A program made the position numbers and the translations under genes. Of a DNA stretch of 64,000 bases, positions 23,657 to 36,758 are shown one piece after another. Positions within the stretch are counted from its first letter, which is position 1. Every line of letters begins with the position of its first letter. The stretch spans positions 109,344 to 173,343 of the forward strand of contig CACHBB010000001.1 in the NCBI GenBank assembly GCA_902577945.1. Direction: 5' to 3'. Source of the stretch: an uncultured Alphaproteobacteria bacterium. Its GTDB lineage: Bacteria; Pseudomonadota; Alphaproteobacteria; HIMB59; GCA-002718135. A model generated the notes under the pieces. The model had not been told where the DNA came from and did not search any database. It saw only the letters and a program-made list of their open reading frames with translations.

Positions 23657-25204
23657 CTAATTCTTTAAATATTCATTAAGCTGATTAAATGTGATTACTT
23701 TTAACATAATTACTAAACTAAGATAAATAATTATAGATAAAATAATCAAAAGAATTAAAAAAAATGAGTTTAATAATAAGGAAACAGAAGTCAGATCTAT
23801 GAATAAAAATTCCTTTATGAAATGAGTGGTTAAAACAAGAATAAAAGAACATATCAAAATCTTCAAAGTATTTGTGATTATTAAATTATCCAATTTGATA
23901 TTATTTCTTATTAATAAAAAGAAATATAACAATAATGCATTTATCCATGCACTTATGGCTGTTGCGAGTGCTATCCCCATTTCACGCATAGTCTGAATTA
24001 ATATTAATGATAAAATAATATTACTAACGACACTTATAATTGAAATGTAGAGTGGTGTTTTGGTATCTTGTCTTGCAAAAAAACATGAAACTAACACCTT
24101 AATAATAATATACGCTGGTAATCCTAAAGAAAAAAATCCAAGAACTTTTGCGGTATAATAAGTATCTTCTTTGAGAAATGCTCCTCGTTCAAAAAGAATA
24201 TAAATTATAGGCTCTGCTAAAATAAACAATCCTATTGCTGAAGGTATAGATATAAGTAATGAAAATTCAATTGATCTATTCTGAATATTATCAATTGTTG
24301 ATTGATCTGATTGCTTTATTGCTTTTGATAGACTGGGTAAAAGCACTATACCAATAGCTATTCCAAAAATTGCTAATGGTAATTGATTAAGACGATCAGC
24401 ATAATAAATATGACTAATTGCACCAGATGGTAGAAAAGAAGCAATGATTGTTCCAATAACTATATTTAATTGAATAACGCCGGATCCAATTATACCTGGT
24501 AAAAATAATTGAAAAAATTTTTTAAGTTTTTTATCATAAATTGGAATTCGTATACGAGGTCGATAGAGTTTTAGAACTGATGTATACAAAAATAAAAATT
24601 GAAAAATACCGCCAATGAGAACTCCGTATGATAAAGCGTGACCAGTGCTTGGTAAAAAAGGAGTTAAGAAAAACAATGAAAGTATAAAACTCATATTTAG
24701 AATAGCAGGTGCAAATGCGCCGGCTGCAAATTTTTCATGAACGTTGTTTACAGAAGCAAAATGTGATGCCAGAGATATAAAAATTATATATGGAAATATA
24801 ATTTTGCCAAAATGAACCGCTAGCTCATAAGCTTCTTTATTATTAGTGAAACCAGGAGCTAATATTTGAATAATGTACGGCATTCCAAAGAAAAAAATAA
24901 TAGTTAATAAAATAGTTACAAAAAATAACATTGAAGTTGTGTTTTCTATAAAATCCGCTGCCTCTGTATTATCTTTGGGATTTAAGATGACACCAGAAAA
25001 AACAGGTACAAAAGCTGCACTATAAGCTCCTTCCGCTAAAACGCGTCTAAAAAAGTTGGGAATTCGAAATGCCACAAAAAATGCATCAGCCATTACAGAT
25101 GATCCCAAATATCTTGCTATTAAGATATCACGAATAAATCCTAAAATTCTGCTTAAAAAAGTATAAAAGCTGACAGTAAAGAATGATCGAAAAAAATTCT
25201 TCAT
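23657..25204 (-). CDS. murJ: Lipid II flippase
   Basis: [45 protein letters not shown]. Confidence 0.95.
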
Positions 25205-25390
25205 AAAATTATTTTACAGTTTGATGAGTGATTTGTATAAATTAAAATATTATTTAACATTATGTTTTTTATAAAGATGAATGATGTCTATTAGTTTGAA
25301 ATAATTAGAAAATTTGATGAAATTATGGCTTATTTGAACTCTTAAGTATTTCTCTATTGATTATTTAATAAGATTAAATATAAAATTTAT

Positions 25391-25474
25391 ATGAATTCAG
25401 AAAATCCTAATCCACCAAAGTGTGGTTGTAGTTGTAGCTGCTGCTGTACTTGTGAAGGTGAAGGTTGTTGTTAA
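25391..25474 (+). CDS. Small Cys-rich peptide, metallothionein-like (MNSENPNPPKCGCSCSCCCTCEGEGCC); not in ORF track
   Basis: Translated by hand: 27 aa, 9 Cys; preceded by TTGATT-N16-TATAAA-N6-ATG; adjacent to zinc locus. Confidence 0.65.
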   Translation: MNSENPNPPKCGCSCSCCCTCEGEGCC

Positions 25475-25534: not shown

Positions 25535-25945
25535 TTATTTTTTTAAATTAATAATAATATTAGACTTACTGTTAATCGCGGGGAATCTTCCCACTATATT
25601 AGATCTATAAATTTCAGGTCTATGTCTACGTCTTAAAAAACCATCTTCAGATTTGCTATAGGTTAATAAAAGTTCTTGTAATGAATTAATATAATCAGAA
25701 TTTTTAGGATCTATATCTCCAAATACATAGGTAAAACAATTTTCTGCAGTCAAAGATACAATACATGAACGTTTACAATTACTCATACAATTTACACCTC
25801 TTAAAGTTACATTTTTTTTATTTTTAAATTTATCAATTAATTTATGAGCAAGTTTTTCTCCTGCAAGTTTACTATTATTTTCATCTTCATTAAGTTTACA
25901 TGTGAGACAAACAGATAATATTATTTCTTTTTCTTTTTGTGACAT
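25535..25945 (-). CDS. DUF1636 family predicted metal-binding protein
   Basis: VCLTC ... VNCMSNCKRSCIVSL ... TYVFGD pattern. Confidence 0.8.
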   Translation of the reverse strand: MSQKEKEIILSVCLTCKLNEDENNSKLAGEKLAHKLIDKFKNKKNVTLRGVNCMSNCKRSCIVSLTAENCFTYVFGDIDPKNSDYINSLQELLLTYSKSEDGFLRRRHRPEIYRSNIVGRFPAINSKSNIIINLKK

Positions 25946-25966: not shown

Positions 25967-26221
25967 CTAATGAGTGTGATTTGTTAGATTATTAATATCT
26001 GACTCCTCTATTTCTTCTATTGATTTCGCTACTCGCCAATTTTTCATTGATCCGTCTTCATTTCTTGCGGTAATAACAGTTTCAATTGGTGGACAATCGG
26101 GCTCATGACAACTGAGTTCAGCAATACTTATTAAAGTATTTTCTGATAATTTATATTTCTTGGAAATTAAATGTTTGAGATTTCTTATTTTTTCAACATT
26201 TTGATTTTTACGATTAAACAT
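25967..26221 (-). CDS. Small hypothetical protein with CxEPxCPP motif
   Basis: ELSCHEPDCPPIETVI; AGGAG RBS; HTH C-terminal tripeptide. Confidence 0.7.
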   Translation of the reverse strand: MFNRKNQNVEKIRNLKHLISKKYKLSENTLISIAELSCHEPDCPPIETVITARNEDGSMKNWRVAKSIEEIEESDINNLTNHTH

Positions 26222-26231
26222 ATTTTCTCCT

Positions 26232-27269
26232 TTAATTGTCTGCCCATAAAGATGATAAAAGAATAGAACCTTTCATATCCCCAATTAATATTTGTGAATT
26301 ATCACTAGATATCGCTATTGTTGAAACTTCCGAACCTGTTGAACTTCTAATCATAATTGGTTTTTTACTTTCATCAATTTCTGCTAATAAAACTGACCCA
26401 TCTGTAAAACCGGTGAAAACAGCTTTTTCTCCATTTAGTGCTTTAACAAATGTTGCAAGTTCTTTACCACCGTTTGCAACAACAATTGGCTTTCTCCCCA
26501 TTGGTCCTTCTGTGCCATCAAATGGCCAGCAAACTGCATCACTGGATCCAGATGTTACCAAATACGGTGTATCACCAACCCAAGTAAAACTTTTAATTTT
26601 TGATGGATAACCTCTCATTGCTAAATCAGCTTTGTCGTTTATGCGCCAACCATGAATTTGATTTTCTTGCATTGCAGTGACAATATATTTTGTATCTGGG
26701 CTAAACGTTACAGTTCCATGCGATCCTTTCCATGTAAAATTTGATGCTGTCCATTTATTATTATTAAGTTTCCACACTGTTACTCCACCGTATCTTGAGA
26801 CTGCCAGACGTTTACCTTTATTATCAAATGCTAATCCACCAACTGTACTTGGATGCTCTAAAGTTTGTGGTTTATCTTTGTTTTTTGTCCAAATATAAAC
26901 AGTCTTTCCTGATGAACAAACTTTAGTATCTTTGTGGGAAGCTACACAGTCAACCCACTTTGAACCAAAATTAAAAATTTCATCAATATTTCCATCAGAT
27001 GATATTTTTAGAAAACGTCCATCTTCTCCTCCCGTTAACACATGATCTTCATAATTTGTCATACTCAACACTACACCCTTATGTGCTTTAACAGTTTTAG
27101 GATCAGATCCAGATTGAAAAAATCTTACAGTACCGTCTCCAAATCCTACCGCTATTTGATCACGAATTGTAACCGCTTCTGTAGCTGGGGCTCCAATATT
27201 AAAAATTGAACCTCTTCTTTCAAGTTCAGTTTTATTTGATTCTTGAAGTTTTTCTAAATCAGCGTTCAT
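26232..27269 (-). CDS. WD40-repeat beta-propeller protein
   Basis: Repeated GDG.V/GEDG and W-terminated blades; 4-bp overlap with the COG0523 gene. Confidence 0.85.
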   Translation of the reverse strand: MNADLEKLQESNKTELERRGSIFNIGAPATEAVTIRDQIAVGFGDGTVRFFQSGSDPKTVKAHKGVVLSMTNYEDHVLTGGEDGRFLKISSDGNIDEIFNFGSKWVDCVASHKDTKVCSSGKTVYIWTKNKDKPQTLEHPSTVGGLAFDNKGKRLAVSRYGGVTVWKLNNNKWTASNFTWKGSHGTVTFSPDTKYIVTAMQENQIHGWRINDKADLAMRGYPSKIKSFTWVGDTPYLVTSGSSDAVCWPFDGTEGPMGRKPIVVANGGKELATFVKALNGEKAVFTGFTDGSVLLAEIDESKKPIMIRSSTGSEVSTIAISSDNSQILIGDMKGSILLSSLWADN

Positions 27270-28237
27270 GCTGATTTACAATTTTCAAAGCCTTCCTTAA
27301 GATTCATATTATCAAGATCACGACCAATAAATACTACTCGAGAACTTCTATCTTTTCCTTTAGGCCAAGGTCCCATTGGTGAAGCATCCATAAGCATATG
27401 CACTCCTTGAAATACATATCGCTCTTCTTCCCCTTTAAAGTTCAAAATTCCTTTTGATCGAAGAATGTCCTGACCTTTAGTCCTCAGTAAATTTCCAAAC
27501 CAATCTTGAAACTTATCCATATCTAATGGTGTATCAGATACAAAGGATAGACTAGTAACATCATCATCATGTTCATGATCATGATCTGATTCAAGAAAGT
27601 CAGGTTCAATATCTAATACTCTATCTAGACTAAATGCATTTAAGCCTACGATTTCATCAAGAGGTGCATCACAACGTGTTGTTTTAATAATCTTTGCAAA
27701 AGGATTAATTTTTCTAATACGATCATTAACTTTTACAATGTCATTATCTTCAACAAGTTCAACTTTATTTAACAAAATTACATCAGCAAAAGCAATTTGT
27801 TCTTCTGCTTCATGATGATCGACTAATTGAGAACTTAGATGAACAGCATCGGCAACTGTAACAATTGCATCTAATTTTGTTCTATCAGCAACATCTTGAT
27901 CAACAAAAAATGTCTGAGCAACTGGGGCTGGATCTGCTAAACCAGTTGTCTCAACTATAATTGCATCAAGCTTATCAGCACGTTTCATTAAGCCACTTAG
28001 AATTCTAATTAAATCACCTCTAACAGTGCAACAAATGCACCCGTTGTTCATTTCAAATACTTCTTCATCAGCATCAACAACAAGATCATTGTCGATACCT
28101 TGTTCACCAAATTCATTAACAATGACAGCGTATTTCCGTCCATGCTGTTCAGTTAAAATTCGATTTAAAAGAGTTGTTTTTCCAGCTCCAAGAAACCCTG
28201 TTAAAACAGTAACTGGAACCTGAGAAGTATTTTCCAT
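27266..28237 (-). CDS. COG0523/CobW-family metallochaperone GTPase
   Basis: GFLGAGKT, NEFG, GCICC, ETTG, HDHEHDD linker, CobW_C (RSKG, FQGVH, VFIG). Confidence 0.93.
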   Translation of the reverse strand: MENTSQVPVTVLTGFLGAGKTTLLNRILTEQHGRKYAVIVNEFGEQGIDNDLVVDADEEVFEMNNGCICCTVRGDLIRILSGLMKRADKLDAIIVETTGLADPAPVAQTFFVDQDVADRTKLDAIVTVADAVHLSSQLVDHHEAEEQIAFADVILLNKVELVEDNDIVKVNDRIRKINPFAKIIKTTRCDAPLDEIVGLNAFSLDRVLDIEPDFLESDHDHEHDDDVTSLSFVSDTPLDMDKFQDWFGNLLRTKGQDILRSKGILNFKGEEERYVFQGVHMLMDASPMGPWPKGKDRSSRVVFIGRDLDNMNLKEGFENCKSA

Positions 28238-28308: not shown

Positions 28309-29844
28309 TTAACAGCCTTTAAGCTCGTTCCCGAGATTACTAATCAACGTAAAGTAAAGTGACTTACCAGCATCAATGTTAGCACCTAAAGGATCAAAAA
28401 CTCCTGTTTTGATATTCATATCCTCAGCTATTGTTGTAATAATCTTTGGATTAAATTGAGGTTCAGAGAAAATACATTTTATTCCCTTATCCTTAATAAC
28501 ATCCTGAATATCAGCTATTTGCTTCGCACCAGGTAAAACATCAGTATTCAATGTTAATGCTCCTGCTGCTCTTACACCAAATCTTTCTTCAAAGTATTGG
28601 TAGGCGTCATGGAAGACAACAAATTTTGCATCAGAATTAATATCTGTACCAACATCACTAATAAGCTGATCTAAAGCTTTAATTGTTGCTTCAGCATTTG
28701 CTTCATATTTCTCTTTATTGGCAGGATCTAAATCACCTAACTCATGAGCTATTTCATGAACCATTTCTTTAGCATTCATTGGATCTAGCCAAATGTGAGC
28801 ATCAAATTCACCGTGTGCATGGCCGTGATGATCGTGATGATCGTGACCATCCATTTCTGGTTCTTGAGCAATTGGTTCTATGTCTGCACCAGAGGTATCT
28901 TTGAAGAAATGTTCATTTGCTTCAAACTCAAAAGGCATGTGCTCTGTGAAGAAAGCATATTTTCCATTCTCAGCTATTTCAACAGTAAACACAGTCATAT
29001 TTTGAGAATCATCAAAATTTAAAGAGTATGCAATCTCTTTAGCAACAAGAGTTCCACCATTTGTTTTTTTTGCGGAAGTTTTACTTTCTAAAAGTTCTTC
29101 AGCCGTTTCCTCAACTGCTTCAATATCATCAGCCGCTAGTAATACTAACTTCATAGCAGGGTCAGCATAATCGCCATCAACTTTAGCAGCAGACCACTTA
29201 TATGTTCCCGCTTTTAGATCAAATAATCCTGCCCATTCAAAAGCATGTGCACCGTGTGCGTGATCATCGTGGTCATCATGATCATCGTGATCATCATGGT
29301 CATCATGATCATCGTGGTCGTCGTGGTCATCATGATCGTCGTGGTCATCGTGATCATCATGGTCATCGTGATCATCATGATCGTCATGGTCATCATGATC
29401 ATCATGATCATCATGATCATCATGATCGTCATGATCGTCATGATCGTCATGGTCATCGTGATCGCCAAAAATAGACTCTTCTCTAAATTTTAATTTAGCA
29501 ATTGTTTCAACTTCCATAAACTCTACAACTTCAGCACTTTTTGCTATTGACTCAAGAGGTTCTTCTAATGATGTCTCAATACCCTCCCCAATCCAAAATA
29601 CTATATCTGCCTCTTCAAGCATTTTTGCATGAGATGGTTTCATTGTAAAACTATGTGGAGATATGCTTCCTTCAATTATAAGTCCAGGTTCACCAATTCC
29701 ACTCATAACATTAGAAATTAATGAATGAAGTGGTTTGATAGTTGTTACAACTTTTAATTCTGCTCTAGCAGATGCAGTTGCAGCAAGAATTCCTGAAAAC
29801 AAGATAATTTTAAAAACATGTAGAAAAAAATTCATTTGTTTCAT
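28309..29844 (-). CDS. znuA: Zinc ABC transporter substrate-binding protein with long His/Asp loop and inserted domain
   Basis: VVTTIKPL, SPH, DAHIWLDP, FHDAYQYFE, SEPQF; start moved to MKQMN at 29844 (AGGAAT upstream; ORF-track start lies inside the Zur box). Confidence 0.92.
   Translation of the reverse strand: MKQMNFFLHVFKIILFSGILAATASARAELKVVTTIKPLHSLISNVMSGIGEPGLIIEGSISPHSFTMKPSHAKMLEEADIVFWIGEGIETSLEEPLESIAKSAEVVEFMEVETIAKLKFREESIFGDHDDHDDHDDHDDHDDHDDHDDHDDHDDHDDHDDHDDHDDHDDHDDHDDHDDHDDHDDHDDHDDHDDHAHGAHAFEWAGLFDLKAGTYKWSAAKVDGDYADPAMKLVLLAADDIEAVEETAEELLESKTSAKKTNGGTLVAKEIAYSLNFDDSQNMTVFTVEIAENGKYAFFTEHMPFEFEANEHFFKDTSGADIEPIAQEPEMDGHDHHDHHGHAHGEFDAHIWLDPMNAKEMVHEIAHELGDLDPANKEKYEANAEATIKALDQLISDVGTDINSDAKFVVFHDAYQYFEERFGVRAAGALTLNTDVLPGAKQIADIQDVIKDKGIKCIFSEPQFNPKIITTIAEDMNIKTGVFDPLGANIDAGKSLYFTLISNLGNELKGC
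29260..29463 (-). repeat. Coding 9-bp tandem repeat, D-(HDD)x22-H
   Basis: 198 nt of CAY-GAY-GAY units (29263-29460) with synonymous variation. Confidence 0.95.
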
Positions 29845-29883
29845 AAAAGTATTCCTATTTGAATTATGTGTGTTAAATGAAGT

Positions 29884-29902
29884 AATGTTATAATATAACA
29901 TT
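29884..29902. promoter_or_regulatory. Zur box
   Basis: Perfect palindrome AATGTTATA-A-TATAACATT matching the proteobacterial Zur consensus, between divergent znuA and znuC. Confidence 0.92.
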
Positions 29903-29921: not shown

Positions 29922-30671
29922 ATGCTAGAAAATAATAATTTATTAGTCAAATTAGATAACTGTGGTGTTTACAAATCATCTAAATGGATTGTACGAGGAG
30001 TAAGTTTAGAAATTCATAAAGGGCAAATTGTTACTCTAATAGGACCTAACGGTTCCGGAAAGACAACATCAGCTAAAATGATACTTAAGATACTTCAATC
30101 TGATGAAGGGCAAGTAGAGAATTATGCTATTAAAATGTCTTATGTACCACAAAAAATTAATATTGACTGGACAATGCCTCTTCGTGTCATAGATTTTATG
30201 AAATTAACAAGTCATATTAATAATTTAGAAATTATTGACGCTTTAAAATTAACTGGGGTTGATAATCTTCTTTATAACGACATACATAATTTATCTGGTG
30301 GAGAATTTCAGAGAGTCTTAATTGCTAGGGCAATCGCAAAAAAACCAGACTTACTTGTTTTAGATGAACCAGTTCAAGGAGTTGATTTTAATGGAGAAAT
30401 CGCCCTATACAATCTTATAAAAAAAATTAGCACAACACTTAATTGTGGAATATTATTAATATCACATGATCTTCATTTTGTTATGTCAGCTACAGATCAT
30501 GTAATTTGCTTAAATGGTCATATATGTTGTTCTGGAACACCAAAATCAATTGTAAAGGATTCTGCATACATAGAATTATTTGGTGAACATAAAGCTACAA
30601 CTTTATCACTTTATCAACATGATCATGATCATTCTCATGAAACAGATGGGAGTGTTTCAAATAATGTTTGA
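29922..30671 (+). CDS. znuC: Zinc ABC transporter ATPase
   Basis: GPNGSGKT, LSGGEFQR, LDEP, HICCSG, His-rich C-terminus. Confidence 0.93.
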   Translation: MLENNNLLVKLDNCGVYKSSKWIVRGVSLEIHKGQIVTLIGPNGSGKTTSAKMILKILQSDEGQVENYAIKMSYVPQKINIDWTMPLRVIDFMKLTSHINNLEIIDALKLTGVDNLLYNDIHNLSGGEFQRVLIARAIAKKPDLLVLDEPVQGVDFNGEIALYNLIKKISTTLNCGILLISHDLHFVMSATDHVICLNGHICCSGTPKSIVKDSAYIELFGEHKATTLSLYQHDHDHSHETDGSVSNNV

Positions 30672-31467
30672 TGATTTTTTTACTAGAGCTCTAATAGCAG
30701 GTATTGGTATCGCCATAGTAGCAGGACCTCTCGGATGTCTTGTAATTTGGCGAAGGTTGTCTTATTTTGGAGACACATTATCACACTCAGCGTTACTAGG
30801 CGTCACTTTAGCATATTCTTTTAGTTTTAATATTACATTTTCAGTCTTTATAATATCAGCTGTCATTGCCTTACTTTTAATTAATTTACAAAAAAGAACA
30901 AAACTTGCAGGAGACTCCTTACTTGGTCTGCTTGCTCACTCTACACTTGCAATAGGTCTTGTATTAATTGGATTTCTTACTTCAATAAGATTTGATCTTA
31001 TGGGTTTATTATTTGGAGATATACTTGCAGTTAACATAGAAGATATTACCTTGGTTTATGTTGGTGGTGTCGCAATATTAACGATTTTATACTTTATTTG
31101 GAAATCATTGTTTTCAGCTACTGTGAATTATGATCTAGCCGCAGCAGAAGGAATGAAGCCTGAAGTTTCAAATTTTATTTTTACTCTTTTATTAGCAGGT
31201 GTCATTGCACTTTCTATAAAAATGATTGGTGCTTTATTGATTACTGGTTTACTTTTAATACCAGCAGCAATTGCAAGAAATGTTAGCAGTAGTCCCCGGC
31301 AAATGGTTATAATTGCAACTTTAGCTGGCGTGGTTTCAGTGATTGCAGGATTGTTTGTTTCGCTTGAGATTAATACTTCTTCAGGGCCTTCTATAATTGT
31401 AGTTGCATTAATATTATTTATTATTTCGCTTATTCCTTTAGAGATAAAGGGCCAGTTGCAAAAATGA
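30664..31467 (+). CDS. znuB: Zinc ABC transporter permease
   Basis: MFDDFFTRAL start, YFGDTLSHSALLG, LFGDILAV, IGALLI. Confidence 0.93.
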   Translation: MFDDFFTRALIAGIGIAIVAGPLGCLVIWRRLSYFGDTLSHSALLGVTLAYSFSFNITFSVFIISAVIALLLINLQKRTKLAGDSLLGLLAHSTLAIGLVLIGFLTSIRFDLMGLLFGDILAVNIEDITLVYVGGVAILTILYFIWKSLFSATVNYDLAAAEGMKPEVSNFIFTLLLAGVIALSIKMIGALLITGLLLIPAAIARNVSSSPRQMVIIATLAGVVSVIAGLFVSLEINTSSGPSIIVVALILFIISLIPLEIKGQLQK

Positions 31468-31474
31468 AAACAAT

Positions 31475-31894
31475 TTGATAACTAAAATTATGGAATTAGA
31501 ATCAGAAAATTTAACCAAAAACCAGAAAACAGTTCTCAGCGTTCTGGAGAAATCTTCTGAGCCAATGAAGGCATATACCATTCTTTTTGATATCCAAAAA
31601 AAGGGCATAAAATCACCACTACAAGTTTACCGTGCATTGGATAAATTAATTGAAATTGGCAAAGTACACAAAATAGAAAGTAGAAATTCTTACATTGCTT
31701 GTAAACATGAAAATTGTAATGCCAAAAACTCAACTACGTTTTTAATATGTGAAAATTGCGAGAAAGTAATAGAACTAAAAAGGGATAACTTATCGCTATA
31801 TTTTTCAAAACAAGCTGTAAAAGATAACTTTCAATACAGAAAACATAATTTAGAAATTTATGGAATTTGTAATGATTGCAAAGGAGTTAACTAG
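31475..31894 (+). CDS. zur: Fur-family zinc uptake regulator
   Basis: QVYRAL, HKIESRNSYIAC, two CxxC; in znu operon beside a Zur box. Confidence 0.9.
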   Translation: MITKIMELESENLTKNQKTVLSVLEKSSEPMKAYTILFDIQKKGIKSPLQVYRALDKLIEIGKVHKIESRNSYIACKHENCNAKNSTTFLICENCEKVIELKRDNLSLYFSKQAVKDNFQYRKHNLEIYGICNDCKGVN

Positions 31895-31911: not shown

Positions 31912-32595
31912 TTACGAGCCAAAACAATATCCTGCTGATCTCACGGTTCTTATAAAATCTTCTTTTTCGTCATTATTTATGGCCTTTCGCAGTCTTCTTA
32001 TATGAACATCAACTGTTCGAGGTTCTACATGGGCCTCATTTTTCCAAACATGATTAAGTAATTGTTCGCGGCTAAAGACACGACCAATATTTTCCATGAA
32101 GAAAGCTAATAAATTAAATTCTGTTGGACCAAGATGAAGAGTTTCTCCATCTCGTGATGCCGAGTGAGATACAAGATCAATTACTATTCCTTTATAAGTT
32201 AAAACTTCATCTACAAACATTGGTCTTATTCGTCGAAGAACAGCTTTTACTCTTGCCACTAATTCGTTAACCGAAAAAGGTTTTGTAATGTAATCATCTG
32301 CTCCAGTTTCTAAGCCACGAAGTTTATCTTCTTCTTCACCTTTCGCTGTTAACATTATGATAGGAATATTCTTATGTTGTTTATGTTTTCTAATTCTTCG
32401 ACAGAGTTCAATTCCTGATAACTCTGGTAACATCCAATCAAGAATAATTATGTCAGGTGGTTTATATAATATTTTTTCTAAAGCAGTTTCACCATCCGTT
32501 GCAGTATCTATTTTATATCCTTCTTTGTTAAAATTAAATTTTAAAAGATCTAATAATGCTTCTTCATCTTCAACGATAAGCATTTTTAGTTTCAT
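31912..32595 (-). CDS. phoB: Phosphate regulon response regulator
   Basis: LDWMLP, GADDYITKPFS, LGPTEF, RTVDVHIRRLRK, RTVRSAGY. Confidence 0.96.
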   Translation of the reverse strand: MKLKMLIVEDEEALLDLLKFNFNKEGYKIDTATDGETALEKILYKPPDIIILDWMLPELSGIELCRRIRKHKQHKNIPIIMLTAKGEEEDKLRGLETGADDYITKPFSVNELVARVKAVLRRIRPMFVDEVLTYKGIVIDLVSHSASRDGETLHLGPTEFNLLAFFMENIGRVFSREQLLNHVWKNEAHVEPRTVDVHIRRLRKAINNDEKEDFIRTVRSAGYCFGS

Positions 32596-32617
32596 GAATC
32601 TCTATTATTTAATTTTT

Positions 32618-32635
32618 GTTACAATTCTATTACAA
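32618..32635 (-). promoter_or_regulatory. Pho-box-like site upstream of phoB
   Basis: TTGTAAT-AGAA-TTGTAAC, then N10-TAATAG-N6-ATG. Confidence 0.7.
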
Positions 32636-32636
32636 T

Positions 32637-33347
32637 TTATTTCTTCTTTGGAAGAATTGCTTCCCAGGTTGGGTCTGGATTACCATCAATTAGGGGCTCA
32701 CCAGAAACTGCATAGTAAATATCTTCTGCAATATTTTGAACATAGTCACCTATTCGCTCTAGGTCTTTAACCATATATAAAAGACTTGTACATGCTGTGA
32801 TTCTCTTTGGTTCTTCCATCATGTAGGTTAATAGTTGTCTTAATATTCCAAGATATTCTTCATCAATTTGTCTATCCATTAACCAAACTTTTTTTGCGGC
32901 TTGATCTGAAAATTCTAAAAAAGCTTTTATTACTTCACTAATCATTATATTTACTTGTGCACCCATATTAATAATATCTCTCGAAGGTTTTTCTGGCAAA
33001 ACTATTTCTGCTACTGCTACTCTTTTGGCAATATTTGTTGCATGATCTCCTATTCTTTCTAGATCTTTATTGATTTTAATTGCTGAAAAAATTGTTCGTA
33101 AGTCTGCAGCCATCGGTTGTCTTTTGCCAAGTATTTCAACTAAGCTTTGATCAAGAGTATTATATGCTTTATCAATTACATCATCGTTTTCTATAATTTT
33201 TTCTGCAAATTCTGTATCTTTATCCTTTAAACATTGAAGTGAGTCTTTTAGTTGATTTTCAACTAAACTGCCCATATCAACAATATTATTTTTAATGTCT
33301 CTAATTTCTTCATCATATGATTTTACAATATGTCCTTCTTGTTTCAT
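32637..33347 (-). CDS. phoU: Phosphate signalling protein
   Basis: QPMAADLR, DLERIGDH and DLERIGDY repeats. Confidence 0.96.
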   Translation of the reverse strand: MKQEGHIVKSYDEEIRDIKNNIVDMGSLVENQLKDSLQCLKDKDTEFAEKIIENDDVIDKAYNTLDQSLVEILGKRQPMAADLRTIFSAIKINKDLERIGDHATNIAKRVAVAEIVLPEKPSRDIINMGAQVNIMISEVIKAFLEFSDQAAKKVWLMDRQIDEEYLGILRQLLTYMMEEPKRITACTSLLYMVKDLERIGDYVQNIAEDIYYAVSGEPLIDGNPDPTWEAILPKKK

Positions 33348-34108
33348 TAACCAAATCTCCCTGTAATGTAATCCTGTGTTTTTGTATTATCAGGATTTGT
33401 AAAAATTTTGTTTGTCTCACCCGTTTCTATTAATTCTCCTAAATGGAAGAAACATGTTTTCTGCGAAACCCTGGCTGCCTGTTGCATAGAATGAGTTACT
33501 ATAATAATTGTATAGTTTAATCTTAACTCATCAATTAATTCTTCTATAATAGCAGTTGCTATTGGATCTAAAGCAGAGCAAGGTTCATCCATTAGGATTA
33601 TTTCAGGATTAACAGCAATTGCTCTTGCAATACATAATCGTTGTTGTTGACCGCCTGATAAACTTGTTCCAGGTTCATTTAATCGATCTTTTACTTCATC
33701 AAATAGACCTGCCTTTTTTAATGATGAATGTACAATTTCTTCTAATTCATTTTTTGAGTCAACTAAACCATGTATAGTTGGGCCATAAGCAACATTATCA
33801 AAAATAGATTTAGGAAAAGGATTTGGTTTTTGAAATACCATTCCAATTTTAGATCTTAGACTTACAACATCGGTTTTTTCACTAATAATTTCTTCGTTAT
33901 CTACTTTTATTGATCCCGATACTTTACATATTTCAATTAAATCATTCATTCTGTTTATACATCTTAAGAAAGTTGATTTACCACATCCTGAAGGACCGAT
34001 TAATGCCGTAACTTCTTTCTCCTTGATATCCATTGAGATTCCAAAAAGAGCTTGTTTGGATCCATAATATACATCTACACCATTTGCCAATATTTTAGAG
34101 TTACTCAT
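33347..34108 (-). CDS. pstB: Phosphate ABC transporter ATPase
   Basis: [42 protein letters not shown]. Confidence 0.97.
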
Positions 34109-34111
34109 GTT

Positions 34112-35392
34112 TTACCACTTCCTTTCAAATCTATTTCTTAAGAACACTGCAATGGCATTCATCATAAACAAAAATATTAAAATTACCATTATTGCTGCGG
34201 CTGATTTTTCTTGAAAACCTCTTTCTGCACTTTCCACCCAAAGATATATTTGAACAGGTAGTGCTGCTGAAGGTTCTGTTAAACCAGTTGGAATATTAGG
34301 AATAAATGCAATCATACCAATCATTATTAGTGGTGCTGTTTCTCCTAATGCTTGTGCTAATCCAATAATAGTCCCTGTTAAAGTCCCTGGTAGTGCAAGG
34401 GGTACGACATGATGAAATACCGCTTGTGTTTTTGTTGCTCCAACTGCAAGTGCTCCTTCTTTAATTGAAGGAGGAACAGCTTTCAATGAAGCTCGACAGG
34501 CAATGATAATGGTTGGTAACGTCATTAAGGCTAATACGGACCCTCCAACTAACGGTGTACTCCTTGGAAGACCAAAAACATTAAGCAATACCCCCAACCC
34601 AAGTAGTCCAAAAACTATTGATGGGACTGCTGCTAGATTTGAAATATTTACTTCTATTAATTCAGTTATTCTATTTTTTGGAGCAAATTCCTCAAGATAA
34701 ACAGACGCTCCTATAGCAATTGGAAAAGATAAAATAAAAACAGTAAAAAGAGTAAATAATGATCCCATAAATGAACCAGCTACACCAGCAATTTCAGGAT
34801 GCCTTGAATCTGCTTTAGTAAAAAAGAAATTATTAAAAACTTGTTTAACTCTATTTTCTTCAACTAATTGATCAACATAACTTAATTGAATATCATTTAA
34901 TTTTCTTCTATCTTCTGGCACATCTCTTCTTGAATTACCTTTTAATAGTTGATCCACATCACTATGGGCAGTTACCCAAATTTGTTGCTTTGTATTAATG
35001 ACTTCAGGATTTTCTAAGAAGTAGTCTTTAATTTCGTTATCTACATTTATAGAAAATAATTTTTTTATTAATTTAATATCTGATTTTGAGAGATCTGGGA
35101 AAAAATTTTCAATAGCCTGTTTTTTAACTCTAAAAAATTTTCCTTTTTCCATCTCTTCATCTGAAGATTCAGGTGTTAGTTTTAAGACCTCTTGATTATA
35201 ATCAACTTCTAGGAGAACAATTGTTTTTTGAAAAGCAGTGTATCCTTTTGAAAATATTGTATACAAAAGGAAAACTAAAACTGCTAAAGATAAACACATA
35301 GCTGTAAAGCCATAATACTTAAATCGTATATCTTCTAAACTTCTCTTTTTTCTCAAAGAAACAATTTTTTCTTTAGCAATAGAATTATTCAT
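34112..35392 (-). CDS. pstA: Phosphate ABC transporter permease
   Basis: YLEEFA, LAAVPSIVFG, GETAPL. Confidence 0.95.
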   Translation of the reverse strand: MNNSIAKEKIVSLRKKRSLEDIRFKYYGFTAMCLSLAVLVFLLYTIFSKGYTAFQKTIVLLEVDYNQEVLKLTPESSDEEMEKGKFFRVKKQAIENFFPDLSKSDIKLIKKLFSINVDNEIKDYFLENPEVINTKQQIWVTAHSDVDQLLKGNSRRDVPEDRRKLNDIQLSYVDQLVEENRVKQVFNNFFFTKADSRHPEIAGVAGSFMGSLFTLFTVFILSFPIAIGASVYLEEFAPKNRITELIEVNISNLAAVPSIVFGLLGLGVLLNVFGLPRSTPLVGGSVLALMTLPTIIIACRASLKAVPPSIKEGALAVGATKTQAVFHHVVPLALPGTLTGTIIGLAQALGETAPLIMIGMIAFIPNIPTGLTEPSAALPVQIYLWVESAERGFQEKSAAAIMVILIFLFMMNAIAVFLRNRFERKW

Positions 35393-36758
35393 AACGCTCC
35401 CTGTATCTCTTTACTATTTGTAGAGCTATAATGTTAAGAAATAATGTAATAACAAATAAAACTAATCCTAAAGCAAATGCTGATAATGTTCTTGGGTTAT
35501 CAAATTCTTGATCACCTATTAAGGCCACAACAATTTGAACTGTAACTGTTGTTACATTTTCAAAAGGATTACCTGTAAGATTGGGAGCTGTACCTGCTGC
35601 AACTACAACAATCATAGTCTCCCCTATCGCTCTGGATATTGCTAACAAAAATGCTCCTACAATTCCAGGTAAAGCTGCTGGTAAAATTACTTTTTTAATA
35701 GTTTCTGCTTTATTAGCGCCAATACCAAGAGATGCTTCCCTTAGACTTTGCGGGACAGAGTTTATTACATCATCAGATAAAGAAGAAATAAAAGGAATAA
35801 TCATAACCCCCATTACCATACCAGCTGCAAGGGCGCTTGTTGGTGAAGCATCAATTCCAATTGATTGTCCAAATGCTTTTACGAAAGGCGCAACACTAAC
35901 AAAGGCAAAGAACCCATAAACTATTGTTGGTATCCCTGCTAAAATTTCAAGAAGAGGTTTAACTGTTTTTCTAACTCTTTGACTTGCGTATTCTGCTAAA
36001 TAAATTGCTGTTAATAATCCAAGAGGTGCCGCAACACACATGGCTACTACCATTACTAAAAATGTTCCAGCAAATATTGGTACTGCACCAAAGGATCCCT
36101 CTGCAGCTGTTTGACCTTCTCTAATTGGAATAAAAGGGTACCACTCGGTACTGAATAAAAATTCAGATATTGATACCTCTGCAAAAAAGCGAAGGCTTTC
36201 AAATATTAGTGAAAAAACTATTCCTAATGTAGTAAAAATAGCAACAGATGAACAAAATATAAGTATATATTGAATATATTTTTCAATTGTATGTTGAGCA
36301 TGAAATTCTGGTTTTAATTTTTGTGAAGCGTATAAGGCTCCAAGTAACATCATAATGATTATTGAGGTATAAAAAGATATTTGACTTATTTGTTTTAAGG
36401 AAGAATAATGAGATGCAGCATTAATTATTTCTATAGATTTACCATCAGCAAAAGAGGGGTTATTAGCAACATTTCTAATCTCTGCTAACAATAATCCTTC
36501 GTTGTAGACCGCACCCTCAATAAATTCAAAGTTACTAATAACTATGTTTTGAATAATCTGCTCTTGAAAAATAGCCCATGAAAAATAAACAATTAGTGCA
36601 GGAAACAAACACCACATTAAAACGTATTGTGCGTAATAATTGGGAAGAGATTTGCTTTTCGTACCTTGTTTTTTAGAGTTTAATTTAATTCTTGATCTTC
36701 CGTATATAAAGGATGAGAAAATTCCGACTGCAATTAAAACTAAAGACCAAAAAAACAT
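35385..36758 (-). CDS. pstC: Phosphate ABC transporter permease
   Basis: YLAEYA, LAGIPTIVYG, SRAIGETMIV. Confidence 0.95.
   Translation of the reverse strand: MFFWSLVLIAVGIFSSFIYGRSRIKLNSKKQGTKSKSLPNYYAQYVLMWCLFPALIVYFSWAIFQEQIIQNIVISNFEFIEGAVYNEGLLLAEIRNVANNPSFADGKSIEIINAASHYSSLKQISQISFYTSIIIMMLLGALYASQKLKPEFHAQHTIEKYIQYILIFCSSVAIFTTLGIVFSLIFESLRFFAEVSISEFLFSTEWYPFIPIREGQTAAEGSFGAVPIFAGTFLVMVVAMCVAAPLGLLTAIYLAEYASQRVRKTVKPLLEILAGIPTIVYGFFAFVSVAPFVKAFGQSIGIDASPTSALAAGMVMGVMIIPFISSLSDDVINSVPQSLREASLGIGANKAETIKKVILPAALPGIVGAFLLAISRAIGETMIVVVAAGTAPNLTGNPFENVTTVTVQIVVALIGDQEFDNPRTLSAFALGLVLFVITLFLNIIALQIVKRYRERYE

Follow-up and report, generated by a model that had tools for sequence, protein, structure and literature searches.

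The window, a stretch of 64,000 nucleotides from an uncultured alphaproteobacterium of the order HIMB59, carries on its plus strand a 27-aa, nine-cysteine micro-gene at 25391..25474, an ATG...TAA open reading frame whose translation is MNSENPNPPKCGCSCSCCCTCEGEGCC. On one side lies murJ (23657..25204, minus strand), which is divergent and upstream, and on the other side a convergent zinc operon on the minus strand. The last gene of this operon encodes a DUF1636 protein (25535..25945; PF07845, E 9e-26), and beyond it lie the genes for an 84-aa two-cysteine protein with no Pfam or NCBIfam match (25967..26221), a WD40 propeller protein (26232..27269), a COG0523 (CobW/CobW_C) GTPase (27266..28237), and znuA (28309..29901; PF01297). 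The micro-gene thus converges, as had been claimed from the sequence, on a minus-strand run of znuA, COG0523, WD40 and DUF1636 genes, from which the 84-aa ORF had been omitted. The 84-aa protein has a CHEPDCPP motif and always occurs together with the WD40 and COG0523 genes (13/20 loci), and the DUF1636 gene is optional, being present at 8/20 own-genus loci.

Between znuA and znuC we found a 17-bp palindrome (29885..29901) that recurs in 21 loci and that is likely to be the Zur box. The listed start of the znuA ORF overlaps this palindrome, so translation of znuA probably begins at the ATG at 29844 instead. ZnuA (28309-29901) has a long Asp/His repeat, and its complete copies range from 333 to 530 aa in 20 loci. 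The genes znuC-znuB and zur follow on the plus strand (29922..31894), the former named by sequence and position and the latter by a FUR domain, with the Zur model below its cut-off. Directly after zur is a sequence-named phoB/phoU/pst-like block (31912-36758); different genes occupy this place in other loci.

The micro-peptide has a mass of 2.76 kDa and a pI of 4.25. An Asn/Pro-rich N-terminus of 10 residues precedes its cysteines, which are arranged as CxCxCxCCCxC-x4-CC and encoded by seven TGT and two TGC codons. The sister-family form has 26 aa, with one residue fewer on either side of the core (the spacing before CC being x3/4). No signal peptide or other export signal was detected, and AlphaFold2, run with a shallow alignment of 12 rows, returned a low-confidence model with a pLDDT of 55.7 and no secondary structure. 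The micro-gene stands out by its GC content of 0.39 (22 G, 11 C), compared with 0.16 and 0.18 in its flanks. The window's genome has 4772 ORFs with lengths of 20-60 aa, and the Cys fraction of the micro-gene, 0.33, exceeds that of all others, the runner-up reaching 0.25. The sequence-only reading of this locus had described a 27-aa, nine-Cys ORF in a G-rich patch of AT-rich intergenic DNA, using both Cys codons and having a metallothionein-like anatomy (rich in CxC and CCC, no aromatic residue, no His), and our analysis bears out each of these points, with 33% Cys arranged in CxC, CC and CCC.

The micro-gene is conserved and under purifying selection

In a DNA search across 41 genomes the ORF stood out as a conserved island. 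Its ungapped identity is 76-86%, as compared to 30-51% in the flanks. Among 19 loci of relatives, 18 have the intact 84-nt ORF, and the remaining one (G015) is frameshifted near its end. In an alignment of these 18 relatives and the window, 22/30 variable columns fall on codon position 3, and pN/pS is 0.073. Similar values were obtained for 51 own-genus full-length CDS (0.076) and for 21 sister-family CDS (0.069). Both Cys conservation and synonymous variation in relatives, the check that had been suggested for this ORF, were seen in both families with pN/pS of about 0.07.

The 74 distinct CDS start with ATG (71), GTG (2) or TTG (1) and end with TAA (47), TAG (25) or TGA (2). The nine cysteines are kept in 72/74 of them, a count that is partly circular because the search pattern already prescribed the first six Cys, and a Cys-pattern scan was the source of many copies. 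Cys spacing is strict across the two families, Pro, Gly, Ser and Thr are conserved as well, and the N-terminal prolines (P-x-x-P/P-x-P) are nearly invariant. Two serines between the cysteines are encoded by AGY codons in one family and by TCN codons in the other, which suggests that selection acts on the residue. Aromatic residues are confined to a Tyr in one sister-family variant and a Trp in a broken allele.

Broken alleles make up 3/74 of the distinct CDS. The frameshift in G015 removes the last two Cys, and its 47-aa product is identical to P0034; the others are a frameshift after the sixth Cys in G046 and a metagenome locus with a stop at codon 4. The broken alleles (L028, L097 and the one metagenome locus) may be assembly errors.

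The exact window peptide is absent from a collection of 15 billion proteins, as would be the case for a chance ORF or a non-coding element. However, pN/pS is as low as about 0.07 in the coding frame only, with ratios of 0.16-5.6 in the other five frames, where internal stops occur in 2-15 of 15 sequences. Given this frame-specific selection we rejected the chance ORF, whose probability we regard as negligible. The top Cys fraction in the genome and the purifying selection together place the micro-ORF beyond chance: ORF 25391-25474 is a real, unannotated gene under purifying selection.

Contigs from metatranscriptomes were also inspected. These contigs are strandless and were chosen by small word shares, so that their coverage speaks neither for nor against transcription; those of relatives extend over the greater part of the ORF in X2, X3 and X6, and not in X1. 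On one relative's locus, strandless contigs from four runs covered the ORF partly, in X6 only.

Distribution of the micro-gene

Our set comprised 187 genomes of the order, namely the window's own, 104 genus-mates, 71 genomes of a sister-family genus and 11 genomes in seven small genera. A profile search found the micro-gene in 121/187 of these genomes, including 76/104 of the other own-genus genomes and 44/71 of the sister-family genus, with 0/11 in the seven small genera. None of 397 genomes from other orders of the class had it. The micro-gene is dispensable: it occurs in 12/22 near-complete genomes, was not detected in G025, whose genome is a single contig, and is missing from the fully assembled znuA-murJ gap of the own-genus genome G048.

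The named record AG-404-B13 carries the micro-gene as well, with neighbours that agree with the genes of the window's genus. This record is listed in family GCA-002718135, one of two HIMB59 families (PMC10734472), and HIMB59 corresponds to AEGEAN-169, formerly SAR11 subclade V (PMC10308909). The record thus points to HIMB59 as the probable order of the window.

Outside this genome set, a profile search of 1.84 billion representative proteins retrieved 7 matches, all of the own-genus type; six of them have a mis-called upstream start and one is the frameshifted allele. Of 92 pattern matches in metagenomes, 59 were members of the family, and their called neighbours agree with the genes of the order. 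In viral contigs, a loose Cys pattern gave no member among the matches listed (80 loci, consisting of poly-Cys frames and unrelated Cys-rich ORFs), and a tighter one gave 10 loci with 0 members. A GTDB-wide pattern limited to TGC at the first Cys found 17 loci with 1 member. The pattern [KD]CGCSCSC on genome contigs gave 269 stretches, 0 of which passed tblastn; since this number exceeds the 121 known copies, homologues beyond the order HIMB59 may exist.

No match to the micro-peptide family was found in Pfam, NCBIfam or PDB, and the best hit in the ESM Atlas, an unnamed cluster of 45 aa, scored 0.75, under the useful range. The micro-gene is an example of a conserved gene that annotation overlooks because of its length, which presumably falls under the limit of gene callers.

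Promoter layout differs between the two families

Upstream of the micro-gene we found a promoter-like −35/−10 pair on the plus strand, TTGATT-N16-TATAAA (25357..25384; hexamers at 25357-25362 and 25379-25384), which ends 6 nt before the ATG. No SD-like AGG/GGA precedes the window's gene, and a leaderless transcript may be inferred for this copy from the promoter-like layout. The match in itself is not above chance, as the window contains 6 such sites versus 4.2 +/- 2.0 in shuffled sequences. A weak genome-wide test for leaderless layouts gave 21/274 divergent genes versus 9.2 in shuffles, and 30/500 internal genes versus 15.2.

Leaderless expression had been proposed from the letters of the window. 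The hexamers are indeed placed as described, and the layout (TTG at −37..−33, TA at −13..−11) recurs in 17/18 sister-family copies, but the proposal does not extend to most copies in the window's own genus, where the layout is present in just 5/38; an SD-like AGG/GGA is found in 33/38.

A short ORF that is rich in one codon type and leaderless in many copies might also be a Cys-sensing attenuator, that is, a leader peptide encoded by a uORF. The next long downstream ORF, however, is antisense in 20/20 own-genus and 19/19 sister-family loci, so that there is nothing to attenuate. In addition, our scan found no terminator-like site, and residues other than Cys are conserved. We consider an attenuator highly improbable and rejected it on the grounds of the opposite-strand ORF (39/39) and the missing terminator-like site.

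The link to the zinc locus is lineage-specific

In all 20 own-genus loci examined, the micro-gene stands tail-to-tail with the znuA operon, with 0, 3 or 4 accessory genes in between. The gene on its upstream side is pirin in 16/20 and murJ in 4/20 of these loci. In another genus of the family (L239, L240, L246) pirin lies 2-3 genes from zur, on the opposite side of the zinc cassette; pirin itself therefore stays close to the zinc locus.

All 62 own-genus pairs of micro-gene and zur that share a contig lie within 2.8-6.4 kb of each other, these pairs coming from one genus and thus not representing independent events; 4 further pairs are split across contigs. In the sister family, 0/37 copies of the micro-gene share a contig with zur. 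The site of the micro-gene there (19 loci) is bounded on one side by a tRNA-Thr/methyltransferase block and on the other by a protease of the proteasome type, accompanied by a circularly permuted ATP-grasp protein. Some of these loci (L078, L082, L083, L089, L095) have a SulP transporter and a Pfam-less 306-aa protein upstream of the micro-gene. At L092:5075-5233 (minus strand) the proteasome-type protease is followed immediately by a hydrophobic ORF of 52 aa, which overlaps the micro-gene's stop in antisense.

We also searched the region from −150 to +20 of 39 micro-gene copies for a Zur-like box, and every candidate differed from the znuA/znuC palindrome at 4 or more positions. The promoter Zur box of a Zur-activated, bmtA-like module was thus not found at these copies; direct Zur control of the micro-gene is not indicated and was rejected. 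Since the sister-family copies sit elsewhere and no Zur-like box was found, the zinc link of the micro-gene is lineage-specific. The suggestion that the peptide complements Zur-controlled uptake consequently holds in part: it fits the linkage in the window's genus (62/62), but not the sister family (0/37), the absence of a Zur-like box, or the existence of zinc loci that have no micro-gene.

This neighbourhood bears on the possibility that the peptide, instead of buffering in bulk, serves one particular protein as a small metal-bridged partner, as a donor or as a regulator, with its P-x-x-P/P-x-P N-terminus as a docking site. The near-invariance of the prolines and the adjoining operon with a COG0523 metallochaperone in part of one genus would agree with such a role; on the other hand, 7/20 loci keep the micro-gene without the COG0523 trio, and no gene neighbour is common to both families. 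We therefore regard a dedicated partner as improbable.

A putative miniature metallothionein

The peptide is small, gene-encoded and Cys-rich with CxC and CC motifs, as are members of the operational metallothionein superfamily, and the window peptide also shares with them the scarcity of aromatic residues. Few or no aromatic residues is a criterion for metallothioneins. Because the family has no Pfam, NCBIfam or PDB match, the metallothionein label rests on composition. Taken together, the micro-gene represents a new small-protein family, most likely a miniature metallothionein.

We propose that the micro-peptide is probably a cytoplasmic metallothionein-like metal-thiolate buffer that would hold three Zn/Cd ions on its nine Cys, with Cu(I) as the alternative. 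In metallothionein clusters, nine Cys bind three divalent ions via three bridging thiolates (PMC7614390), and CCC is abundant in the Cd-MTs of Tetrahymena and almost absent from its Cu-MTs (PMC4862169). As nine Cys fit three divalent ions and CCC marks the Cd type of Tetrahymena, we tentatively favour a Zn(II)/Cd(II)3-Cys9 cluster, at somewhat under an even chance, over a Cu(I) cluster, which we judge unlikely.

According to this proposal the micro-gene would be translated and the product, having no signal peptide, kept in the cytoplasm. The metal-free peptide is expected to be unfolded and to fold around the metal, its thiolates wrapping one small cluster. Surplus Zn would be stored in this form, and entering Cd or Cu trapped, in cells that almost never possess efflux pumps of the P-type ATPase or CDF type.

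Indeed, a P-type ATPase (PF00122) was found in 1/187 genomes and a CDF protein (PF01545) over the cut-off in 1/187, with 0 in the two carrier genera (pump-search controls, 14/14). The sole P-type ATPase is L237 (G185, 5% contamination) and the sole CDF over the cut-off is L368 (G123). Both pump types are likewise missing from G025, which is not a carrier; this lack is order-wide and extends to non-carriers, and therefore does not single out the carriers. Synechococcus WH8102, which combines uptake with MT storage and has no known efflux (PMC9337993), provides a precedent. It is the Cys9 chemistry, the CCC motif, the rarity of pumps and this precedent that lead us to read the peptide as a small buffer for Zn/Cd, with Cu(I) in second place.

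The nine thiols per 27 residues could alternatively serve in a metal-free form, as a redox buffer or a reserve of reduced sulfur. Metallothioneins scavenge oxidants as well (PMC7558416), and no metal-related gene adjoins the sister-family copies, some of which are near the SulP transporter. Yet the strict Cys spacing and the conserved Pro, Gly, Ser and Thr in two families go beyond what a bulk store needs, and in one genus the gene is linked to the zinc cassette. A metal-free thiol peptide thus seems to us rather unlikely.

A third function to be weighed is that of a RiPP precursor of the thiazole/thiopeptide, methanobactin/bufferin-like, ranthipeptide or lanthipeptide kind, in which a leader of 10 residues would precede a core rich in Cys, Ser and Thr. 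The composition of the core resembles that of azole-type precursors, and in the sister family the circularly permuted ATP-grasp protein and the proteasome-type protease are close by. These two proteins were, however, not found by tblastn in the window's genome (G000, 82% complete). YcaO occurs in 0/187 genomes and DUF692/MNIO in 0/187 over the cut-off, with 2 weak sub-threshold matches. Typing of radical SAM proteins, applied to the four in G000, gave the housekeeping MoaA, MiaB, MtaB and LipA; G019, G021 and G022 have additional radical SAM proteins. A LanC-like cyclase was found in 0/5 genomes, in a search whose control was silent. The micro-peptide also lacks the signal peptide present in bufferins (PMC11626156). 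A RiPP precursor had been judged the lesser alternative for want of an adjacent modifying enzyme, and the genome-wide results lead us to the same view: we consider it very improbable.

Returning to the metal-thiolate buffer, few bacterial metallothioneins have been characterised, namely the SmtA/BmtA type and MymT (PMC7558416, PMC13578184). In the full texts searched, largely from outside the subscription journals, no paper joins 'metallothionein' with 'HIMB59' or contains the core motif, and nothing on the micro-gene was seen among the matches listed for SAR11, Pelagibacter or AEGEAN-169 in combination with metallothionein. More speculatively, the micro-gene may define a new bacterial metallothionein family, formed by one bare eukaryote-style cluster of three metals and nine Cys at about half the size of SmtA or MymT, and used for storage without efflux. 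If so, a member of 26-27 residues would contribute a further sequence family, along with a minimal metal-thiolate cluster whose synthesis and testing cost little. It would also hint at the way in which a streamlined marine order of cosmopolitan distribution, with P-type ATPase and CDF found in one genome each, handles metal excess, with an abundant ocean lineage dealing with Zn, Cd and Cu through storage alone.

Comparison with known metallothioneins

SmtA/BmtA proteins are about 60 aa long, of which Cys makes up about 16%; they use His ligands and adopt a GATA-like zinc-finger fold (PMC13578184, PMC10612145). As noted in the sequence-only reading, the micro-peptide is much shorter (26-27 aa) and has no His; it also differs by its 33% Cys, by the absence of a PF02069 match and by the lack of a Zur-like box. 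PF02069 returned 0 families for 12 micro-peptide members, and an SmtA-type MT was found in 0/5 genomes, the control in S. elongatus being positive. Membership in SmtA/BmtA was rejected, given the missing PF02069 match, the missing His and the half length. The setting nonetheless resembles that of BmtA in WH8102, which is Zur-activated and whose gene, likewise small and Cys-rich, belongs to an oligotrophic bacterium of the sea that has ZnuABC/Zur and no known zinc efflux pump (PMC9337993).

MymT of Mycobacterium tuberculosis, a Cu(I)-binding protein of 4.9 kDa with a role in copper resistance, likewise came from an unannotated small ORF and turned out to be a distinct type of bacterial MT (PMC7558416). 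The micro-peptide is smaller, at 2.8 kDa, and no Pfam or NCBIfam match links the two. With the Cd-MTs of Tetrahymena subfamily 7a it shares the CCC and CC clusters, although those proteins are eukaryotic, modular and 99-191 aa long (PMC4862169).

Similar in size is the Cu-metallothionein of Neurospora crassa, where six Cu(I) are held by 7 Cys in 25 residues and which the micro-peptide resembles in its single mini-domain, Cys density and CxC motifs (PMC7614390). That protein is fungal, has 7 Cys versus nine here, and gives no sequence match. The animal three-metal cluster of nine Cys is known as the beta domain, and this domain is similar in size to the micro-peptide. Although no homology was detected and the bacterial peptide stands alone with its own spacing (CxCxCxCCCxC-x3/4-CC), it shares with the animal cluster exactly nine Cys and the absence of His and aromatic residues (PMC7614390).
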